NCBI GenBank assembly: GCA_036401335.1
Contig: DASWVC010000033.1
Location: 291 to 64,290 of the forward strand
Source: Chthoniobacterales bacterium
GTDB lineage: Bacteria; Verrucomicrobiota; Verrucomicrobiia; Chthoniobacterales; JAFAMB01
Direction: 5' to 3'
Length of the DNA: 64,000 bases
The notes below the pieces were generated by a model. That model saw nothing but the letters and a program-made list of their open reading frames with translations, made no database searches and had not been told where the DNA came from. Position numbers and translations under genes: made by a program. Numbering within the stretch: position 1 is the first letter of the stretch; every line of letters starts with the position of its first letter. Positions 2,868 through 51,624 of the stretch are shown in pieces.

Positions 2868-3209
2868 TTAGCGACGGCGAAAATCGCGGTCACGTCCCCG
2901 TCGCGTGTCTTTTGCTCCACCACGTCCGGCATCGGACGGGAAAAACCGGTCCTGGCGGGCTTCCGGCGGGCGTGCCTCATTGACGGTCAGCGGACGGTTG
3001 TCCAATGAAAAGCCGTTAAATTTGCTGATGGCCTCGTTCGCCTGTTCATCCGAACTCATGGTGACGAATCCAAACCCACGGGACTTACCGGTGAGCTTAT
3101 CCTGAATGATCTTTACATCAACGACCGTGCCGGACTGGGCAAACAGATCCTGCAGATCCAACTCGGTGGTCGCGAAAGAAAGATTTCCTACGTACAATTT
3201 AGCAGACAT
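2868..3209 (-). CDS. RRM-type RNA-binding protein with Arg/Gly-rich tail
   Basis: 113 aa with RNP2 LYVGNL and RNP1 KSRGFGFV. Confidence 0.9.
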   Translation of the reverse strand: MSAKLYVGNLSFATTELDLQDLFAQSGTVVDVKIIQDKLTGKSRGFGFVTMSSDEQANEAISKFNGFSLDNRPLTVNEARPPEARQDRFFPSDAGRGGAKDTRRGRDRDFRRR

Positions 3210-3460: not shown

Positions 3461-3898
3461 TCACCGTCTGGCCGGTTCGGCCAAGGCTGCCGTTTGGTAA
3501 TGAAATTCGACCGGCAATTTCACGTCCGGGTGCAAACTTTGGTGGACCGGGCAGGTGAGGGCGGCTTTTTCCAGACCCGAGCGAAGGGGGTGATCCTCTG
3601 CCAAGGGCAAATGGATGCTTACCTGCAACTTGCCGATGCGTCGCACCGGCTGTTGAACCATTTCCTTCAGCACCTCAACCCGGGTACCATTAAGGTCCAC
3701 CGCGTGGCGTTTTGCGAACAGGCCCATCACGGTCACCATGCAGCTTCCCAACGCCGCGCCCACCAGGTCGGTCGGGGAAAAAGCAGCGCCGTTTCCGCCG
3801 TTGTCGACCGGTGCGTCGGTCGTTAGTTCGTTACCCGAAGGGGCATGCCGGACCGTCGTGTGCAAGTCACCTTGGTAATGGATCTCGATTTTGACCAT
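3461..3898 (-). CDS. OsmC/Ohr family peroxiredoxin-like protein
   Basis: Conserved SPTDLVGAALGSCM and ALTCPVHQSL (the two family cysteines). The ATG at 3898 (MVKIEIHY) is preferred over the TTG at 3922, which lies inside the repeat arm. Confidence 0.85.
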   Translation of the reverse strand: MVKIEIHYQGDLHTTVRHAPSGNELTTDAPVDNGGNGAAFSPTDLVGAALGSCMVTVMGLFAKRHAVDLNGTRVEVLKEMVQQPVRRIGKLQVSIHLPLAEDHPLRSGLEKAALTCPVHQSLHPDVKLPVEFHYQTAALAEPARR

Positions 3899-4160
3899 GA
3901 AACAATGAACAGCAGTGAACAACGATGAACAACGATGAACAGCAATTCACAGGAATAACTTAAGCATGAAAGGTGGCTTGCCCGGAGCTGAAAAAATAAA
4001 CGGCACTCTCAAACACAGTCGCGCCGCACTTACCGCAAGCAATGCGTCGCGAGCGCGCTCCGAGGCCGAGGCTGTATGGCTTGAATGCGTCACAACCCTA
4101 GCGCTGTCCCATTGTCTCAGAGGTGACTCGGGAATTGCTGTTCATTGCTGTTCATTGCTT
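3899..4160 (-). repeat. Composite palindromic intergenic element, copy A (arms of 10-bp RRTGAACARC units)
   Basis: Left arm 3899-3953 has five 10-bp units. Right arm 4130-4160 is the reverse complement of three units. The core is 176 bp. A second copy with the same architecture lies at 7921-8100. Confidence 0.75.
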
Positions 4161-4997
4161 CAGCCCAAAGAAGGAGCGGGCCGTCTTTGTGGTCTGGGCA
4201 GCGAATTCGGCCAGAGTGATCCCGCGATCGCGCGCAATGGATTCAGCGGTTCGCCGGACGAAGGCGGGTTCGCAGCGTTGTCCTCGATGGGGTACCGGGG
4301 CAAGGTAGGGAGCATCCGTTTCCACCATGAACTGGTTCAATGGCAGCTGGGTCGAGACCGCCCGGGCTTCGGGGGCGTTCTTAAAGGTCACTAAACCGGT
4401 GAACGACACGAGGTGGCCGAGGGCCACCAATTCTTCGGCCTGCGCCAAGTTGCCGCTGAAACAATGGAACACGCCGCGCACCGGGTGCCGCCGAAGGGTG
4501 GCCAGCGTGTCCGCCCAAGCGTCGCGCTGGTGGATGATGACGTTCTTGCCGAATTCCGCCGCGAGTTCGAGTTGCTGTTCAAACACCCGTGCCTGGGCGG
4601 CCTTCACGGCTTCATCTTTGATTTCAAGTTCCAGGGTTGCAGCTGAGCCTGCTCCCAGGGCAGCTTGCACGACGTCCGCTCGTTGCTTGCGGCTCGGCAG
4701 GTAATGGTAATCGAAACCGGTTTCGCCGATGGCGACAACCTTTGGGTGTCGGGCCAGTTCAGCCAGTTCGTCCAGGGAGTCTGGACGGTTCGGTTCAACG
4801 TGATTCGGGTGGACCCCGACCGCCGCGAAAACGCCGGGGTGGCGTTCAGCAAGGGCAATCGCGCGACGACTGGAGTCCAGGTCGGTGCCGATCGTGATGA
4901 TGGTGTGAACCTCTGCCTCCGCAGCCCTGGCCAAAACGGCCGGCAGGTCGTCGGCAAACTCCGGAAAATCCAGGTGCGCGTGGGTATCGGCGAGCAT
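4152..4997 (-). CDS. tatD: TatD family metal-dependent hydrolase
   Basis: 281 aa, starting MLADTHAHLDF (HxH metal motif), with TatD-like TIM-barrel conservation throughout. Confidence 0.92.
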   Translation of the reverse strand: MLADTHAHLDFPEFADDLPAVLARAAEAEVHTIITIGTDLDSSRRAIALAERHPGVFAAVGVHPNHVEPNRPDSLDELAELARHPKVVAIGETGFDYHYLPSRKQRADVVQAALGAGSAATLELEIKDEAVKAAQARVFEQQLELAAEFGKNVIIHQRDAWADTLATLRRHPVRGVFHCFSGNLAQAEELVALGHLVSFTGLVTFKNAPEARAVSTQLPLNQFMVETDAPYLAPVPHRGQRCEPAFVRRTAESIARDRGITLAEFAAQTTKTARSFFGLKQ

Positions 4998-7458: not shown

Positions 7459-7920
7459 TCAGTTTTTCTTTCTTTTCAAGTCTAAATCGGCGAGAGCGTC
7501 CCAGGCGCTAGGCACCTGCGCGGGTTCCTCGGTCCTCAACCCGTCGGTCCGGGGACCTGGACAAATCGTTTTTCCATCCCAGTCACACCGGGGATGCGCT
7601 GGAAGAACGAGGAGGATATCCTCACGCACGTATGGCGTCAAGTCGACTACTTCGGGCCCCGTCACATCAATCTGGGCCGCGAAATCCGGCACCACCAAGT
7701 CGTGCCGAAACCGGCGAAGGCAACTGACGCACTCCATTTCAAGCGTCACCGACAGCCTGCCCGTGGCAAAGAGGGAGCTTCCCGATACGCCGACCTCAAC
7801 ATCGTAGGCAACGTTGTCCAGCGGACGAATGCTCGGGTCATCAAGGTCAAGCATGCCTGGTTCTTCGTACCCGACAAGGTGAAGGCCGGTCGGCGGAATC
7901 TGCAGTAAATGAACCTTCAT
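7459..7920 (-). CDS. yceD: DUF177 / YceD-family protein (large-subunit rRNA accumulation protein)
   Basis: 153 aa with a CxxC...C cluster. Conserved position immediately upstream of rpmF. Confidence 0.88.
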
Positions 7921-8100
7921 GAAACAATGAACAGCAATGAACTGCCGTGAACAACGATGAACATCAATTCACAGGGATGCCTTTGGGGGATAAGGCGGCG
8001 GATTCAATGATTTGAATGCGTCCTAATCTTGGTGGCATCCCATCGTCGTAGAGCTGACTCGGGGATTGACGTTCATTGCTGTTCATTGCTGTTCATCGTC
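7921..8100 (-). repeat. Composite palindromic intergenic element, copy B
   Basis: Left arm 7921-7975 has five 10-bp units. Right arm 8061-8100 has four units in reverse complement. The core is 85 bp. The 50-nt block 8012-8061 aligns with 4081-4130 of copy A (37/50 identical by hand). Confidence 0.75.
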
Positions 8101-8585
8101 TTGGCGTCGAACTTGCTTTTGAGTGCGGCCACCACCGAGGGCGGCACGAATGGATTCACGGCGCCCCCGAGCCGGGCGATCTCCTTTACGATGCGTGAGC
8201 TGAGGTAGGTGTAATCTTCCCGCGGCATGAGGAACACGGTCTCGATGCCGGGTTCCATCTTGCGGTTCATCAAGGCCATCTGGAATTCGAATTCGAAGTC
8301 GGACACGGCCCGCAAGCCCCGGACAATGGCCGTAGCGCCGCGCTTCCGCGCAAACCCGACCAGCAGTCCTTCCAGCAGCACGACCTCCACGTTCGGCAAA
8401 TTGCGGCAACCTTCTTCGATCAAGCCGATACGCTCTGAAAACGAAAAGAGGCCGGAGATTTGTTTTTGATCGTTTGCGGCAACCGCCACGATCAGGCTGT
8501 CAAACAACCTGCTGGCACGTTCGATGACGTCAAGATGACCGTTGGTGACCGGGTCAAAGCTTCCGGGGTAGATCGCTCGGCGCAT
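8073..8585 (-). CDS. coaD: Phosphopantetheine adenylyltransferase
   Basis: Begins MRRAIYPGSFDPVTNGHLDVIERA at the ATG at 8585; the longer ORF to 8798 is an unconserved extension. The last codons MNSNEQQ-stop are encoded by the repeat arm. Confidence 0.93.
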   Translation of the reverse strand: MRRAIYPGSFDPVTNGHLDVIERASRLFDSLIVAVAANDQKQISGLFSFSERIGLIEEGCRNLPNVEVVLLEGLLVGFARKRGATAIVRGLRAVSDFEFEFQMALMNRKMEPGIETVFLMPREDYTYLSSRIVKEIARLGGAVNPFVPPSVVAALKSKFDAKTMNSNEQQ

Positions 8586-8610: not shown

Positions 8611-9174
8611 TCAGCGACGGGCTTGGCCAAACAGTGCCGGCAAAGGCAGGAACAGGTCGGGGAACGCCACCGGAGCGAGCACGTCGTGAGCCGGAACTTC
8701 GCGGCAGACGGTGTAGGCGGCCGCGTCCGGGTCGGCCTGTTGGTGCACGAGGACCAAGTCGCGCGTGAGGTCGAAGATCCAATATTCGGCGATCCCATTC
8801 CGGGCGTAAGCCCCCCTTTTTACCGTGCGATCGTACCGCAGTGAGCTGTCGGCGACTTCAATGGCCAAAAAGATGTCGTCTGCGAACGCGTAGCGCTCCT
8901 CCGCAAGAACGCGGCGGTGAACCAGGGCCAAGTCCGGCTGCGGCATGGAATGCGCATCCAAACGGAACGGGTTTTGCGGCGAAACAAAGAAGCGGTCGCC
9001 GGCATTCTTGGCCAGAAGTTCGGTGAGACGATTTACCACGTTGGCGTGCCGCGATCCGATCGGCGATTGAACGATCAAATCACCGTCCAGCAGCTCGATG
9101 TGGTCCTCATTGGTAAGTATGCCGGCATGAAAAAGCTTTTCATACCGTTCCACGTCAAAGCGGTAAGTAGTCAT
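8611..9174 (-). CDS. Uma2 family (DUF820) PD-(D/E)xK-type endonuclease
   Basis: Begins MTTYRFDVERYEKLFHAGIL...ELLDGDLIV, with the catalytic-like core PDLALV...LAIEVADSSLRYDRTVKRGAYARNGIAEYWIFDL. Start at the ATG at 9174. Confidence 0.85.
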   Translation of the reverse strand: MTTYRFDVERYEKLFHAGILTNEDHIELLDGDLIVQSPIGSRHANVVNRLTELLAKNAGDRFFVSPQNPFRLDAHSMPQPDLALVHRRVLAEERYAFADDIFLAIEVADSSLRYDRTVKRGAYARNGIAEYWIFDLTRDLVLVHQQADPDAAAYTVCREVPAHDVLAPVAFPDLFLPLPALFGQARR

Positions 9175-9253
9175 AGCTTTAGACCTTCCAATTCTGGGCC
9201 TGAACCCGTAGGGTGAGGTCGTCGCGCGCCCCCGGTCGGGTCCATGCAAGGAA

Positions 9254-10834
9254 TCATTCCCACTCGATCGTGCTTGGCGGTTTGCTGGAAACATCGTAGC
9301 AGACCCGGTTTACCCCTTTGACTTCGTTGATTACCCGAGCCGAAATCCGCGCCAGGATTTCATACGGAAGGCGCACCCAGTCGGCGGTCATGCCATCCTG
9401 GCTTTCGACGATGCGCACGGCCACGGTGTCTTCATACGTGCGTTGATCGCCCATGACGCCTACCGATCTTATGGGCAACAGCACCGCAAACGATTGCCAG
9501 ACCTTGTAATACCAATCGGCGGCCTTCATCTCGTTTACCACGATCTCGTCTGCCTGGCGCAGGACCCGCAGGCGTTCCGGGGTGATCTCGCCCAGGATGC
9601 GCACCCCGAGTCCTGGACCCGGGAACGGCTGCCGAAAAACGATTTCCTTTGGCAGTTCCAGCTCAAGCCCGACCTGACGCACTTCATCCTTGAACAGCTG
9701 CCGCAACGGTTCCAGCAGCTCGAGGTCCATTTTTTCAGGAAGGCCGCCTACGTTGTGGTGGCTTTTGATCAAGGCAGCCGGGTTTCCGCCGATTGCCACG
9801 CTCTCAATGACGTCAGGGTAAAGCGTGCCTTGCGCCAGGTAATGGTAGCGTCCTTCACCCGTGTCCGAAGCTTTCAACTCCCGGGTGGCCTCCTCGAACA
9901 CACGGATGAACTCTTCCCCGATGATCTTGCGCTTTCGTTCCGGATCGACGATGCCCTGCAAACGGTTGAGGAACCGGCTCGACGCATCCACGTAGCGCAA
10001 CTTAATGTGGAAGTTCTCGCCAAAGATCTTTTGCACGGTTTCCGCTTCGCGCGTCCGCAGAAGTCCGTTGTTGACGAAGACGCAGGTCAGACGGTCGCCC
10101 AACGCCCGGTGCAGCAACGCGGCCGCCACCGACGAGTCAACACCGCCGGAAAGACCGAGCACCACTTTGTCCGGGCCAACCCGGGCGTTGATCTCGCGAC
10201 AGGTCTGCTCAATGAACGAGCCCATGGTCCAATCGCCCGCGCAGCCGCAGACCTTGTACAAAAAGTTTTCCAGGATCTCTTTGCCAAGCGGCGTGTGCGC
10301 CACTTCCGGATGAAACTGCAACCCGTACAACTTACGCTTCCGATCTTCGATGGCGGCAAAAGGGGAATTTTCTGTGACGCCGATCGACCGAAAGCCTGGC
10401 GGAAGGCCGGTGACTTTGTCGCCGTGGCTGTTCCAGACCTGGAATTGTTCAGGCAAGGCCTCGAAAAGAGGGCTGGCGCCGGCGGTCGTAAGGTAGCCCG
10501 GACCGTATTCGCGGCGGTCGGAATACTCCACCCGGCCGTCCAAAAAGTGCGCCATTAACTGAACGCCGTAGCAAATTCCGAGGACCGGAACCTCCATTTC
10601 GAAAATCGCCGGGTCAGGGAGGGGTGCGTGGGCTGAGAACACGCTGGCGGGCCCTCCCGAGAGGATGATCCCCTGCGCACCGGTGCGGCGAATGGTTTCC
10701 GGGGCACAATCAAAAGGGAGGATTTCGGAGTAAACGCGGCACTCACGAATCCGTCGTGCAATGACCTGGGTGTACTGGGATCCGAAATCTAGGATCACCA
10801 CCTTGGAAACGGAAAGCATTTCGCCGTTGCTCAT
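9254..10834 (-). CDS. guaA: GMP synthase (glutamine-hydrolysing)
   Basis: GATase part [18 protein letters not shown] with GICYG, ATP-PPase loop SGGVDSS, and C-terminus PPSTIEWE. Start at ATG 10834, or 10819. Confidence 0.95.
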
Positions 10835-31047: not shown

Positions 31048-31187
31048 ACCATACACCGGTGGCACCAAGACAAGGGTTCTTGGGCCCTCAATGGGCACCG
31101 GCTCGAGCGGCGCTCCGGCAGGGCGGTGAGTCCTTTCGCCGCGTCCACGCGCCGAGACGAGGGCCTTTCGGGCCCAAAAACCCTTGT

Positions 31188-31412
31188 CTATAGTGCCCAT
31201 TGCCCCGGCGCCTTCTTGCCGCCGCCGTGCATCACCAGGTCGGCCGCCAGAATAAGCCCACCGCCGACCACGAGGGACAACGAAAAAGTCTCGTCCACCT
31301 ACCTGATGCCAGCAAGGCGGGAAAGAACAGGGTAAACAGCGAAGCAAATAAAGGCTCAAAGGTGTAGATCACGCCCGCTTCAACCGCGCTGGCCGGTTCA
31401 GAAATAAATAAA
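31188..31412 (-). pseudogene. 3' remnant of a DMT/EamA-family transporter gene (5'-truncated, one apparent frameshift)
   Basis: Minus-strand translation gives ...ISEPASAVEAGVIYTFEPLFASLFTLFFPALLAS, then after a frame change VDETFSLSLVVGGGLILAADLVMHGGGKK...stop. This is the typical last two helices of an EamA repeat. The frame closes with TGA where the AT-rich DNA begins. Confidence 0.4.
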
Positions 31413-31771
31413 ACATTTTTAGGATTTTTGAATAGCTGTCACTAATAATTAGTCCGGAAAACAAGCAAAAGGGGGTATGCTTCAGGCAACGCGGCCGTTC
31501 AATCAACCTGCACATGCTTCGCATGGCAGCGATGCCGTGAACCAGACCCGAGAGGAGAGAATAATCGTGAAAAAACTTTAGGGTATCCATTCAGACCCGA
31601 ATGAGAATGCCATAATAACAGGAAAATCTATGGGAGAAGGATTTTTGACGTATTTGGCTGCCGGTTCACCCGAACCGGAGTTGCCTCAGCTGGGGCGCGG
31701 CCGTGCCAAGGGAGGGTTGTTTTGCTTGGGATTGGGGGCCAGACCCGGTCGAACGGTCCGGCCTGCTTAAC

Positions 31772-34700
31772 ATGAACCCTCTTTCCCACGAATCATCGGC
31801 CTCTCCCCGTGAGAGAACCGTTCCTCTGACGGAGTCGCAGAAGGGGCTTTACACGCTGTGCGCGATGGACCCGGGTGCCTCCCGGGCCTATAACGAATCC
31901 TTAACGTGCCGTCTGCGCGGGCCGTACAACCACGCGGCCATGGAAGCTGCATTCCAGGTTTTGGCCGACACGCATGAGGCTTTGCGGGCGCGGGTTGATC
32001 CCGATGGAGAATCTCAAACCATTGCGCGCTCAGTGCACTTTCCGGTGCCTTTGGGTGACCTGACAGCGCTGCCGGGCGAAACCCGGGCGGCGGAGACGGC
32101 AAGGCTGTTGCACGAATTTTCCCAGGTCCTTTTCGATCCCGCAAAGCCACCGCTTTTCCGAGCCATGGTGGTGAAGCAAGACGAGGACGTTCACCTGCTC
32201 ACGGTAACGCATGGAGCGATCTACGGAAACGGTCCGTCCCGCAAGAACATCGTTGAGCAGGCGCTGGACGTTTACGCAGCCAGGGACGGTCGCGTGCCTC
32301 CGATGCAACTGTCGGAGTACGTGGCGCGGCGTGCATTGGATGAGAATGATCCGCGGCACGAGGCATTCTGGACCCACGAGTTTCCGGATGCCCCGGTCCC
32401 GCTGGAGTTGCCCTCGGACTTCCCACGGCCGCCGGCCCCGTCGTACCGCGGTGAGCGTGCCTGGAGAACGGTGGATAAACAGACCACCGCTGCCCTCCGG
32501 CAAGTTGCGTCGGCCCACCAATGTTCCTTGTTCGCATTGGTCCTGACCACCTGGCAGGTGTTGCTGCACCGTCTCTCCGGCCAGGATGACTTGGTGGTGG
32601 GCGTCCCTTCCGACAGCAGGCTCCGGTCCGCGCACCCGGGCGGACCGGCGTTGATCGCAAATACCACCAACCTGCTGCCGCTACGAAGCCGCTTCAACGC
32701 CGGAATGCGTTTTTCGGAGCAACTGGAACGGACCAGGCAATTGGTCGCCGGTGCGATCGAGCACCAAGAATATTTTTTCGGCCGTATCCTGGATCGGCTG
32801 AACCTGGTGCGGGACCCGGCAAGATCGCCCCTTTTTTCTGTAGCCTTGAATTTTCAAAAGGCTTTTCGATTTGCCCCGGCAGGCGCTCTGGAGGCAGAAC
32901 CGCTAAGGCACGAATACCCTTACCAGGCGGCCAGGAACTCCGCCGCTTTTGACCTTTTTCTCCATGTCACGGACCAGGGATCGGCCCTCGAGCTGCACGC
33001 TGATTTCTGCTCCGACCTTTTTCTGCCGGAAACGGTCGAGCGGTGGCTGAAACACCTGTGCGCGCTGTTTGAGAGCGTAGTGGCGGACCCGGGCGGTCAG
33101 TGCCAGGCACTGCCGATCCTCACCTCCGCGGAGCGAACCTGCCTGCTGCAAGGTTGGAACGAGACGCACCGCGATTACCCCACCGACATTTTTCTGCATC
33201 AATTCGTCGAGCGGCAGGTTGCACGGACCCCGGACGGCGTCGCCGTGGTCTATGAAGGCGATCTCCTGACGTACGGCGAACTCAACGCCCGGGCCAACCG
33301 AATAGCGCACCGGTTGCAGGCGCTGGGCATTGCTCCGGGAGCGTTGGTGGGCCTCCTGGCCGAGCGGTCGCCGGAAATGGTGATCGGGATCCTGGCGATC
33401 TTGAAAGCCGGTGGAGCTTACGTGCCGCTGGAGCCGAATTACCCGGAGGAGCGTTTGCATTTCCTCTTGCAAGACGCGCAATCTTCCGTGGTGCTGCTCC
33501 AACGACGTTACCGGCCCAAGGTGGCAGGGTTTCAGGGGCTGGTAGTCGAGTTGGAAGCGGATTTCACCACCGAAGGGGACGCCAACCCGGTCAGCGGCGT
33601 GGGGCGGGGAGACGCCGCCTACGTGATTTACACGTCCGGATCTACTGGAAAACCCAAAGGCGTTCTGAACTCGCACGGCGGGCTGGCGAACTGGTTGTTC
33701 TGGATGCAGGAGACTTTTCCGATGGGATCCGGGGACACGATGCTGTTCAAAGCCCCGTTCACCTTTGATGTCTCGGTCCGCGAGGTGTTCATGCCTTTGG
33801 CGGTTGGCGGGTGCATGGTGGTCGCGCGGCCCGGGTTGCATGGAGACAGCCGGCACCTGGTCGACCTCACTACCCGTCATGGCGTGACCATCCTGCATTT
33901 TGTGCCGCCGATGCTGGCCGCGTTCCTTGAGGACCGTGACGTCCGGCGGTGCTCCTCCCTTCGCCTGGTCATGTGCAGCGGCGATGCGCTTTCGTACGAT
34001 TTACAGGAGCGTTTTTTCGACGTTTTCCCCGGCCTTGAGCTCCACAACATGTGGGGCGCGACCGAGCACGCCCCGGAGTCGACCCACTGGCGGTGCGTGC
34101 CCGGACGTCGGAACGGGATCGTCGCCGTTGGCCGCCCGGGTGCGAACACGCAGCTGTACATCCTGGACCGAGCTTTCCAACCGGTCCCCATCGGGGTAAC
34201 GGGGGAAGCTTACCTCGGCGGGGTGCAGACCGCGTTGGGCTACCTGGGCCGCCCCGAGTTGACGGCCCAGAAATTCCTTCCGAACCCATACCACCCGGGC
34301 ACGCTGTACCGAACCGGCGATCTCGGCCGTTTTCGACCCGACGGGGTGATGGAGTTCATGGGCCGGATTGACTTCCAGGTCAAACTGCGCGGGTTCCGCG
34401 TCGAGCTGGGCGAGATAGAGGCGGTCCTCCTCAAGCACGCTGGGATCCGCGAATGCGTCGCGGCTGTGCGGGGCGCGCCTTCGGACCCGGCCAAACGCCT
34501 GGTCGCCTACCTCGTGGGGGATCCAGCTCCAGTGGACAGCCTGCGGCGGCACGCGGCGCTCAGTTTGCCGGAATACATGGTGCCGTCGGCGTTTGTCTTC
34601 CTGGATCGGCTTCCCGTAACCGCGAACGGCAAACTGGATCGGTCAGCGCTTCCCGAGCCCGCCATGGAGGTGCGGGTGGCCAGGGAGCCGAGGGATGCAA

Positions 34701-35800
34701 CGGAAGCACAGCTGATTGCAATCTGGGAGAAGGTACTGGGCCGGTCGCCGGTAGGGGTGACCGACAACTTCTTTGACCTCGGGGGTAATTCCCTTCTTGC
34801 CTTGAAAGCATTTAGCTTGATCCGGGAAGTCGTGGGGGTGAACCTGCCGCTGGCGACGTTGTTTCAGGCACCGAACGTCGAAAGGTTGGCGGCCAAAGTG
34901 CGGGAAACGGCTGCAGACCAGGAATGGGAGCCGCTGGTGGCAATCCAGTTGCAGGGCAGCCGTCCGCCTTTCTTTGCGGTGCATGGCCGAAATGGCAACG
35001 TCCTTTTCTACCGTAAGCTTTCCGAGCTGCTGGGGTCCCAGCAACCCTTTTATGGGCTGCAATCCCAGGGACTGGACGGCAAACCGATGCTCCGCTCCAC
35101 CGTAGAAGAAATCGGTGAGTACTACTTGGAGAAGATCCGTGCGGTGCAACCGCAGGGTCCCTACCTGCTCGGCGGCTATTCGTTCGGGGCGGTGGCAGCT
35201 TACGAGATCGCCCGCCGCCTGCGAGAGCAGGGGGAGGAGATTGCGCTCCTGGCAATGTTCGACATTTACAACCCGGCACGACCGCCCCGGCTGCTTTCCT
35301 ACACAGAAAAGTTCCGGCATCGCATCATGGATGCGGAAGCACGAACGCCTAACCGGGTCCTGCAGTTCCTCGCCCGCCGGACCAAAGGCCGGGTAAGTGA
35401 ACGGTTGCTAAAGTGGAATGAGCTTTCCCGTCGGTTACTGTTGCAAACGGTGAAACGGACCGAGGACAACTCGCCGGAACTCGTGGATCTTCACGTCCAG
35501 ATGGTTCACGAACGCGCGTTTGTCTCCTACCGGCCCAGGCCATTCAATGGAAAAATCACCCTTTTCCGGGCGCTCATGGTGCCGGATGGGTATGAGTATG
35601 AGGCAGAAATGGGGTGGACCGGGTTGGCCGCTCAAGGCATCGAGATTCACGACGTTCCCGGCGATCATTTCACCATCTTCCACGAGGAAAATGTGCCGAT
35701 GCTGGCCGAAAAACTTTCGGCCTGCATCGAGGCGGCTCTAACAAGCATTGGTTCGGGTTCAAGCCCGTCCATGCACCCGGCACCTTATCCCAGCCGATAG
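31772..35800 (+). CDS. Single-module nonribosomal peptide synthetase, C-A-T-TE
   Basis: Start is ATG 31772 (or GTG 31703). See the domain sub-features below for motifs. Residue numbers are counted from the GTG at 31703. Confidence 0.9.
31820..33112 (+). other. NRPS condensation domain (degenerate C3 motif)
   Basis: C1 [12 protein letters not shown]2 [10 protein letters not shown]5 [13 protein letters not shown]7 RDPARSPLF. The HHxxxDG position reads THGAIYG (nt 32207-32227). Confidence 0.8.
33185..34657 (+). other. NRPS adenylation domain
   Basis: A2 [13 protein letters not shown]3 [12 protein letters not shown]4 [10 protein letters not shown]5 NMWGATEH, A7 YRTGDLGR, A8 [21 protein letters not shown]10 NGKLDR. 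Confidence 0.9.
34694..34906 (+). other. NRPS thiolation (PCP) domain
   Basis: [13 protein letters not shown]; the putative phosphopantetheinyl Ser codon is at 34790-34792. Confidence 0.85.
34955..35722 (+). other. NRPS thioesterase domain
   Basis: PFFAVHG, nucleophile elbow GGYSFG (nt 35174-35188), candidate Asp in LAMFD and His in VPGDHFTIF. Confidence 0.85.
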
Positions 35801-50482: not shown

Positions 50483-51624
50483 TATACCAGCTTGCAGGTT
50501 AAACTGGTAAAATCGGCGTGACCCTGGGCGATGGTTGGGTGAAGTTGGCGCCCATGGCACGGACGCGCCGCAAACTGGATGAACAAGGGGAAACGGAACT
50601 GCTCTTGGAGCGGCTGCGCCGCCAGCGGGCCGGCTGGCAACGCGAACGGCTTTTGGCCGTCAAATGGGGCTTGGAAGGCGAACTCACCCTTGAGCAGATC
50701 GCCGCGCAACTGGGCCGAGCCCGTTCGAGCATCCAGCAGTGGTTTGATGCCTTTCGCTGCAGCGGGGTGGAGGGGCTGCTGTGCTTAAAGCGGGGCAAGG
50801 GGCCGCCCAGTCGCCTCACGCCGGCCATGGCGCGGGCCCTGAGCCGAAAGCTCCAAAGCGGTGAGTGCCGCCGGGCCGTCGACGCCCACCGTTGGCTGGT
50901 GAAGACCTATGGGTTGGAAGTGCGCCTGGCGTCGGTTTACCACTATTTAAAAGGCTTAGGGGCGCGGTTGAAAGTGCCGCGCCCCTGCCACCGCCGCGGC
51001 GTTCAAAGTTACGCTGGGTCAAAAGCTCGCCGCCTTAAACTGCCAGCCCGTCGCCCGGTGCGGCTCTGGGTGGCCGATGAAAGGCGCTACGGCTTGCAGC
51101 CCGTGACCCGGCGGGTCTGGGCTTTACGAGGCCAGCGGACCGTGGTTCCCGTCCAGCCGGGCTATGAAGGGGGCTACGTCTTTGGCGCCCTCCAAGTCGG
51201 GGGCGCGGGTGCGGCGGAGTTCTTTTACTGCCCCACGGCCAACCAGGAATCCAGCCGGCTCTTTTTGCACCAAGTGGCCACATGCGACCCCGAGGCGAAC
51301 CACGTCGTGATTTGGGACGGGGCGGGGTTCCACCCCGGCGACGGGGCACCGAAGCTGCCGCCTGGGGTACGCCTGCTGGCCTTCCCGCCGTACCGCCCGG
51401 AGTTGAACCCGGTCGAAAAGCTGTGGGACCAGCTTAAAGACCGCCTCTGCAACCGACCCTTCCACAGCCTGCGGGCGCTCGAAGCCGTGATGACGGACTT
51501 CCTGCGCGAGGTGTGGCAAGACGCCCGGCGGGTCGGGAATCTGATTGGCGACGGCTGGCTGCGGGCGCAAAGCAAACGCTTCCTTCGCCGGAATTTTGCC
51601 GGTATGACGGCCTAAATGGTATTA
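50483..51624 (+). mobile_element. IS630-family insertion sequence (about 1.14 kb)
   Basis: A single transposase ORF flanked by imperfect terminal inverted repeats (left TATACCAGCTTGCAGGTTAAACTGGTAAAATCGGCG; right, in reverse complement, AATACCATTTAGGCCGTCATACCGGCAAAATTCCGGCG). The ends lie next to TA dinucleotides. Exact ends are uncertain by a few bp. Confidence 0.7.
50554..51615 (+). CDS. IS630-family DDE transposase
   Basis: N-terminal HTH (LTLEQIAAQLGRARSSIQQW). DDE triad candidates are WVADERRYG, VVIWDGAGFH and PELNPVEKLW, with D-to-E spacing of about 30 residues. Start at ATG 50554 (or GTG 50518). Confidence 0.88.
   Translation: MARTRRKLDEQGETELLLERLRRQRAGWQRERLLAVKWGLEGELTLEQIAAQLGRARSSIQQWFDAFRCSGVEGLLCLKRGKGPPSRLTPAMARALSRKLQSGECRRAVDAHRWLVKTYGLEVRLASVYHYLKGLGARLKVPRPCHRRGVQSYAGSKARRLKLPARRPVRLWVADERRYGLQPVTRRVWALRGQRTVVPVQPGYEGGYVFGALQVGGAGAAEFFYCPTANQESSRLFLHQVATCDPEANHVVIWDGAGFHPGDGAPKLPPGVRLLAFPPYRPELNPVEKLWDQLKDRLCNRPFHSLRALEAVMTDFLREVWQDARRVGNLIGDGWLRAQSKRFLRRNFAGMTA

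Follow-up and report, generated by a model that had tools for sequence, protein, structure and literature searches.

The window, by which we mean the whole 64-kb stretch of a metagenome-assembled Chthoniobacterales genome that was analysed, holds two copies of a repeat element 3.8 kb apart. Copy A separates a TatD-family gene from an OsmC-family gene and copy B separates CoaD from YceD (DUF177), all of these genes lying on the minus strand and being assigned with Pfam. The parts of the two copies and the codons that border them are as follows.

3896-3898, minus strand: ATG start codon of the OsmC-family gene (Pfam OsmC), directly abutting copy A
3899-4162, minus strand: copy A, between the TatD-family stop and the OsmC-family start
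3899-3953, minus strand: start-proximal arm of copy A, a terminal GAAAC and five 10-bp units (3904-3953)
3954-4126, minus strand: core of copy A, about 90 nt of which have no counterpart in copy B by alignment
4127-4162, minus strand: stop-proximal arm of copy A, three reverse-complement units (4127-4156) and a terminal TGAAGC
4152-4154, minus strand: TGA stop codon of the TatD-family gene (Pfam TatD_DNase), inside the stop-proximal arm of copy A
7918-7920, minus strand: start codon of YceD (DUF177; Pfam), abutting copy B
7921-8099, minus strand: copy B, between the CoaD stop and the YceD start
7921-7975, minus strand: start-proximal arm of copy B, with five 10-bp units at 7926-7975
7976-8057, minus strand: core of copy B, an apex palindrome ATTCAA-ATCA-TTGAAT and an asymmetric marker common to copy A
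8058-8099, minus strand: stop-proximal arm of copy B, encoding the CoaD C-terminal extension TMNSNEQQ
8073-8075, minus strand: TGA stop codon of CoaD (Pfam), inside the stop-proximal arm of copy B

The outer boundary of copy A is either 4154 or 4162, as the TatD tails of relatives indicate that the AAGCAA there may be native. The ATG at 3896-3898 is the true OsmC start, because all homologues begin MV(K/T/R)IEI.

Both arms are arrays of 10-bp units built on the hexamer TGAACA. Read on the plus strand, the start-proximal units of copy A (3904-3953) are AATGAACAGC AGTGAACAAC GATGAACAAC GATGAACAGC AATTCACAGG, which Tandem Repeats Finder recovers as an array at 3901-3946 with period 10, 4.6 copies and 0 indels; the stop-proximal units, read on the minus strand from 4156 to 4127, are AATGAACAGC AATGAACAGC AATTCCCGAG (array at 4134-4159, period 10, match 100%, 0 indels). 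The initial annotation had described five phased TGAACA units facing three inverted ones, with the TatD TGA inside the right arm and the OsmC ATG abutting the left; the sequence and Tandem Repeats Finder bear out the arrays, and the coordinates bear out the placement of both codons. In copy B the start-proximal units are AATGAACAGC AATGAACTGC CGTGAACAAC GATGAACATC AATTCACAGG on the plus strand, and the stop-proximal units, from 8097 to 8058 on the minus strand, are GATGAACAGC AATGAACAGC AATGAACGTC AATCCCCGAG. The start-proximal arms of A and B share five units in identical order, the last being the variant AATTCACAGG, and the stop-proximal arms have three or four units and end in AAT(T/C)CCCGAG. 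Also common to the two copies is the half of the core adjoining the stop-proximal arm, CCCGAGTCA...GAC.ATGGGA...GACGCATTCAA, which in copy A corresponds by alignment and motif matches to 4081-4137 (GACGCATTCAA ... CAATTCCCGAGTCA on the minus strand). Within the window both copies have the same orientation relative to the minus-strand genes. The element is about 180-270 bp long, its termini are 5'-TGAA...TTCA-3', and its arms are 81-92% complementary over 22-29 nt (86-92% over 24-29 nt for copy A by repeat finder). Gene callers placed no gene inside it in contigs L002, L073, L075 and L079, and in the window it holds only short ORFs overlapping real genes.

Spacing within the arrays is strictly 10 bp, with no indels in any arm of any copy, and a logo of 33 units (A-TGAACA-n-C-r) places most variation at positions 1 and 9, with TGAACA and C10 conserved. 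A spacing of 10-11 bp is also that of the direct repeats bound by winged-helix response regulators, and the initial annotation had suggested a regulator-binding array. Under that proposal a host protein, such as a response regulator of the OmpR/PhoB type or a ribbon-helix-helix protein, would bind the helically phased arms, and the element would be a regulatory module of its neighbouring genes. The strict period and the conserved unit positions agree with this, and the direct-repeat spacing of OmpR/PhoB-type arrays is present; arrays independent of a shared repeat body, however, are not, as no TGAACA arrays lie outside the two elements in the 64 kb. Against an expectation of 0.02, the window has 8 matches to a two-unit pattern, and 8/8 are inside copy A or B. 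The search for promoters between and next to the arrays was negative, nothing obvious points to shared regulation of the two downstream genes, and a literature search on TGAACA direct repeats with response regulators gave nothing. A constant unit length is, moreover, automatic for tandem repeats generated by slippage. We regard the binding-array proposal as very unlikely. The Verrucomicrobia LexA box is TGTTC-N4-GAACA, and LexA was set aside as a candidate because the element's units are direct repeats and not palindromic pairs; the only near-match to the box in the window (3043-3056) lies outside the element and is at chance level.

Distribution and placement

The element recurs in close relatives of the window's strain. 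The window's YceD and TatD proteins have identical counterparts in an NCBI Chthoniobacterales (Verrucomicrobiota) genome built from metagenome data. A Logan contig from the same strain (L002) ends inside the stop-proximal arm of copy B. In relative L073 (92% amino acid identity) the element lies upstream of OsmC, and in L075 (84%) and L079 (97%) it lies upstream of YceD, each time abutting the ATG. The initial annotation had treated the element as a repeat with further copies, and copy B and the elements of L073, L075 and L079 bear this out. A JGI relative (TatD 89%) is represented by a 4037-bp contig that runs from 103 nt before YceD to 25 nt beyond TatD, and its two ends coincide with both element positions. 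Metagenome contigs repeatedly end within the element, and such breaks inside the arms hint at more copies per genome.

Syntenic relatives at about 70% identity carry other sequence at these sites. Their TatD-OsmC spacers of 51 bp (L074) and 106 bp (L078) are both unrelated to the element, as are the 57 bp seen upstream of OsmC in L077, and a profile search with the element gave no match in L074, L076, L077 or L078. Because the same two junctions are occupied in close relatives (84-97% protein identity) and hold unrelated spacers at about 70%, we infer acquisition within a narrow lineage, from a sample of two independent loci and three full copies.

Wider searches returned nothing of the same kind. 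Neither element region matched an Rfam family at E <= 1, and the window as a whole had no Rfam match at the gathering threshold. A scan of species-representative genomes, a collection that does not include the source genome, with an arm-plus-core pattern gave one match only; it is due to chance and lies within a gene for a histidine kinase in a Planctomycetota genome that is unrelated. A metagenome scan with a 19-base two-unit pattern, which is too strict even for the close relative L073, gave 70 loci, all of them either due to chance or tandem runs on one side only, with no inverted counterpart. A viral-contig scan and a plasmid BLAST gave no match to the element, and a literature search gave no relevant match to it.

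At both junctions the element reaches from one gene to the next. CoaD ends ...KFSRA* in L074 and ...KLRPQ* in L078, whereas the window protein continues ...KFDAKTMNSNEQQ*, gaining 8 residues (TMNSNEQQ) that are encoded by the arm and are absent from CoaD of L074 and L078. TatD ends FFGLKQ* in the window and FFGLEQ*, FFGLEGL* or FFGLKQYD* in relatives, tails from which it appears that the TatD stop may be the element's first TGA. A YceD leader conserved in L074 and L078, CTCCTCCGCGCG.TGC.CCTCCAGGCTT, is missing from the window and from L075, where the arm abuts the ATG. Given the CoaD and TatD tails and the missing leader, the element fills the whole spacer from stop to start codon at both independent loci. 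Excising it in silico leaves TatD without a stop codon, overlapping OsmC, and joins CoaD to YceD in an in-frame fusion; since excision gives no plausible ancestor, an insertion that simply left the old spacer in place is rejected. Nor would random insertion be expected to produce exact stop-to-start filling at two independent loci. The stop codon inside the arm, on the other hand, follows automatically from placement, because any ORF entering a TGAACA array stops within 30 nt: each frame of the TGAACA strand meets a stop codon within that distance, and the TGTTCA strand is open in all three frames. Downstream of copy B the operon is yceD-plsX-fabH in the window, and relatives have rpmF between yceD and plsX.

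Several other features were seen at or near these junctions. CoaD and YceD are on opposite strands in L074 (CoaD at 1458-1946) and share a strand in the window (CoaD at 8073-8585) and in L078 (CoaD at 2069-2554), a difference that places a local inversion in one lineage beside the copy B site. A Uma2-family ORF, putatively restriction endonuclease-like, lies between GuaA and CoaD in the window (8611-9294, minus strand) and is absent from the syntenic L074 and L078. In L078 the CoaD stop is immediately followed by an almost perfect palindrome (2555-2630), which has arms of about 30 bp, lies between an A-tract and a T-tract, and resembles a bidirectional terminator or a REP-like element. Upstream of YceD, L075 (1-145) has two tandem copies of the end of the core together with the arm (CCTCCCCCTGCCCCAAGGGCATTGATGTTCATCGTTGTTCATTG), either a real partial duplication or an artefact of low-coverage (1.8x) assembly.

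L076, at about 70% identity, has a different long hairpin in its TatD-OsmC spacer (4218-4431), the arms of which are 10-bp phased units ATTGCGCAAG/ATCGCGCGTG. The arms span 25 nt and are 96% complementary, the RNA fold has z = -3.85, and the hairpin extends from the stop codon of TatD to a point 11 nt short of the OsmC ATG. Its architecture is that of the TGAACA element, and homology between the two is not detectable. The FabH-TatD spacer of L076 (3278-3353) holds a hairpin of roughly 7-bp GTTTGMC-type units, with a related 18-mer upstream of YceD (204-221), which suggests another small repeat family in that genome.

Inversion and turnover of the core

The initial annotation called the element oriented, and this holds within the window but not for the family, because in L079 the core is inverted in place. 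L079 is very close to the window at this locus (YceD 149/153 amino acids identical, 94.8% nucleotide identity), and its start-proximal arm is collinear with that of copy B (52/58). The core marker of L079, by contrast, aligns only as its reverse complement, at 26/32 positions with copy B and 25/32 with copy A (11/13 and 9/11 in the sense direction), and a profile search finds it as a minus-strand match at 6.7e-13. The arm of L079 is a hybrid, GATGAACATC|AATCCGCAGG, in which the outer units are those of the copy B start-proximal arm and the inner unit and marker are those of the copy B stop-proximal side. Judged from these alignments, the core has been inverted in place and the hybrid arm is the product expected of a crossover inside the inverted arms. 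The two core orientations were observed between genomes (L079 against copy B of the window).

In L073 the core is closer to copy B than to its positional orthologue, copy A, a resemblance that points to turnover or homogenisation among copies; the orientation of this core is ambiguous (62 vs 54 bits, and 22 vs 17 of 26 apex positions by hand). Between orthologues the arms are 85-90% conserved, against 70-73% at four-fold degenerate sites of the flanking genes, an excess that could reflect function, although the figure is inflated by homogenisation and by the flexible alignment of tandem units.

An in-place inversion raises the possibility of a programmed DNA switch, in which a recombinase would bind the phased units, flip the core and thereby change expression of the adjacent gene. 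In known invertons (fimS-type switches and the invertible promoters of Bacteroides) an inverted-repeat-flanked segment lies just upstream of genes, and the repeats are common to several loci. The element shares the inverted repeats, which flank a 100-180-bp segment immediately upstream of genes, the presence of the same arms at several loci, and both core orientations, seen here between genomes at one locus where the YceD genes are 95% identical in DNA and the crossover lies inside the arms. Assemblies also break at the arms. Unlike in invertons, neither a promoter nor an invertase was detected: no sigma-70-type promoter was found on either strand of copies A and B, with a consensus that may not be that of the host phylum, and Pfam identified no recombinase domain among the window's 48 longest non-overlapping ORFs, which otherwise show housekeeping genes. 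The housekeeping operon yceD-plsX-fabH is an unlikely target for phase variation, and a single inversion between lineages can come from ordinary recombination between inverted repeats. Taken together, these points make a programmed switch quite unlikely.

Signs of conventional transposition were also sought. No direct repeat marks a target-site duplication at either copy, the flanks being GGGC and TGGT for copy A and ACGA and TGAA for copy B, with boundaries uncertain by a few bases. No autonomous parent element with the same ends occurs within the 64 kb, where there is a single transposase.

50518-51615, plus strand: IS630-family transposase ORF (Pfam DDE_3 and HTH_23/29/33), the only transposase in the window

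This transposase was rejected as a parent, as what appear to be its ends begin with TACCA (near 50483 and 51622), hold no TGAACA units and are unrelated to the arms.

Folding of the transcript

The initial annotation had predicted that the arms pair on the minus-strand transcript, and the predicted folds do lie well beyond shuffled controls, at -110.9 kcal/mol (z = -4.59) for copy A, -72.1 kcal/mol (z = -6.27) for copy B and -81.1 kcal/mol (z = -5.16) for the element of L073. It had also noted that the OsmC start has no Shine-Dalgarno sequence. This is true, but most confident starts in the window likewise have no such motif within 18 nt upstream, so its absence at the element is not special, and the organism appears to initiate translation largely without Shine-Dalgarno pairing.

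These folds invite a reading of the element as an intercistronic RNA device, in which the hairpin hides the downstream initiation region until ribosomes terminating in the first arm open it, or else serves as an RNase III or stability site. Several observations agree with such a role: strong hairpins are predicted for all full copies, both copies in the window place a stop codon in the first arm and a start codon at the foot of the stem, the arms are more conserved than four-fold sites, and the hairpin persists after core inversion. The initial annotation's specific version, that a terminating ribosome frees the start, fared differently at the two loci. When the footprint of a ribosome at the upstream stop was forced to be unpaired in silico, blocking the first arm, accessibility of the start region rose from 0.27 to 0.50 in copy B but stayed at 0.26 (0.26 to 0.26) in copy A.

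Other comparisons weigh against a device acting as RNA. The antisense strand folds equally well or better in copy B and L073 (2/3 copies), and a search for sense-strand G-U bias as a sign of RNA-level selection found nothing consistent. Compensatory changes between the arms, which the initial annotation had proposed as a test, did not appear: in the consensus fold the arm pairs are invariant and the covariation term is +3, which is unfavourable, a result that carries little information given three sequences, invariant pairs and tandem units able to pair in several registers. Relatives that do not have the element manage the same junctions, and the stop codon in the arm would be there for any ORF entering the array. 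For the hairpin effect as a selected function our tests gave no positive evidence, and we consider an RNA device improbable, although it keeps appreciable weight.

It is also conceivable that the hairpin acts as a translation-sensitive terminator or attenuator: with no ribosomes on the first arm, the large hairpin and the UUGUUUCAU behind it would end transcription ahead of the next gene. This U-rich tract directly follows the stem in both A and B, and a scan flagged a terminator-like site with a U-rich tail at 7948-7931. However, the tail is short and not continuous, what was flagged as the stem is only a 7-bp sub-hairpin of a kind found at about the chance rate (2 found vs 0.5 expected), and the scan flagged nothing comparable in copy A. 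Termination ahead of a housekeeping operon (plsX, fabH and, by synteny, rpmF) would also be costly. An attenuator is in our judgement a highly improbable explanation.

Nature of the element

Slightly better than evenly, we favour the interpretation that this is a foldback-type, MITE-like palindromic repeat that has an invertible core and is confined to a single lineage of Chthoniobacterales. The family is previously undescribed, though small palindromic repeats themselves are common in bacteria. The element was acquired in the lineage and now constitutes the whole spacer at the TatD/OsmC and CoaD/YceD operon junctions, and its core has flipped in place through a crossover within the arms. Under this interpretation it would spread or be homogenised as DNA, most likely by way of a protein that recognises the phased hexamers. 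The host may tolerate it at these sites in that the TGAACA arm on the sense strand closes three frames and a core flip leaves the arms and hairpin unchanged. Co-transcription with its neighbours would then yield a 30-50-bp stem burying the region just upstream of the next start codon, and because of this the hairpin probably influences downstream processing or translation, as a side effect rather than an evolved purpose. The inverted arms, the presence and absence among relatives, the closer likeness of paralogous copies within a genome than of positional orthologues, the in-place inversion and the assembly breaks all fit a repeat that is maintained and rearranged at the DNA level. The foldback-type interpretation leaves unexplained why the element runs exactly from stop to start at both loci.

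The initial annotation had offered a Correia-like or MITE-like mobile element as one of its alternatives, and of these MITE-like is the best, since relatives differ in whether these junctions carry the element. Like the Correia (CREE) repeats of Neisseria, pneumococcal RUP and enterobacterial ERIC, it is small, non-coding and bounded by inverted repeats, and like them it is intergenic, varies in presence among related genomes at orthologous sites and would be co-transcribed into hairpins. MITEs, too, can extend or truncate neighbouring ORFs; among the repeat elements covered in one review are some that lengthen genes at the 3' or 5' end, and transcription of MITEs into hairpins is known (PMC3184786). 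The element departs from MITEs in that its arms are phased 10-bp arrays and not a single inverted repeat, in that no TA or other target duplication, promoter, cognate insertion sequence or autonomous element was found, and in its exact filling of the spacer from stop to start. The Correia part of the earlier suggestion does not stand: the TA target duplication is absent at both element junctions, and the 10-bp arrays set it apart, by description, from the single 26-bp repeat of Correia.

Other known repeats resemble the element in part. Drosophila foldback (FB) transposons have inverted terminal repeats made of short tandem sub-repeats, 10-bp units among them, with unit numbers that differ between ends and copies, but they are eukaryotic, of kilobase scale and in some cases carry coding sequence; we draw an architectural resemblance only, with no homology implied. 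Mycobacterial MIRUs lie between operon genes, overlap stop and start codons and keep one orientation relative to transcription. They consist of directly repeated tandem units of about 46-101 bp that carry small ORFs, and they are not palindromic hairpins, so that the overlap of stop and start is alike, whereas the element consists of 10-bp units in two inverted arrays. Neisseria REP2 and the Borrelia IR repeats likewise lie directly in front of start codons, and the element differs from them in having no recognisable promoter or ribosome-binding site and in that its ATG belongs to a conserved native N-terminus. We assign the element to none of the MITE, foldback, MIRU or inverton classes.

We also considered a portable module used by the host, either a family of recombinase-driven switches with the phased units as binding sites or a self-installing cassette that takes the place of stop-to-start spacers and couples downstream to upstream translation. 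Such a module seems unlikely; if true, it would represent a new way of wiring operon junctions in a phylum poor in Shine-Dalgarno sequences.

Three features of the element are notable, namely its arms of phased 10-bp units, a design more familiar from the foldback transposons of eukaryotes, its replacement of whole spacers, including the conserved leader of yceD-plsX-fabH, and the flip of its core between near-identical strains. If the placement seen here is general across the genome, it would point to either insertion targeted at gene boundaries or strong selection on hairpin tolerance at operon junctions without Shine-Dalgarno sequences. There is also a practical consequence for the annotation of genomes from this order, as metagenome assemblies are interrupted at the element and the annotated ends of proteins are changed (CoaD +8 residues).

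The window holds no other long inverted repeat of the same kind. An isolated inverted repeat unrelated to the TGAACA element, with 20-nt arms that are 95% complementary and an 82-nt loop, occurs at 31068-31189. It lies just upstream of a plus-strand, single-module NRPS-like ORF (31703-35800; condensation, AMP-binding, PP-binding and thioesterase domains) that is set among housekeeping genes.
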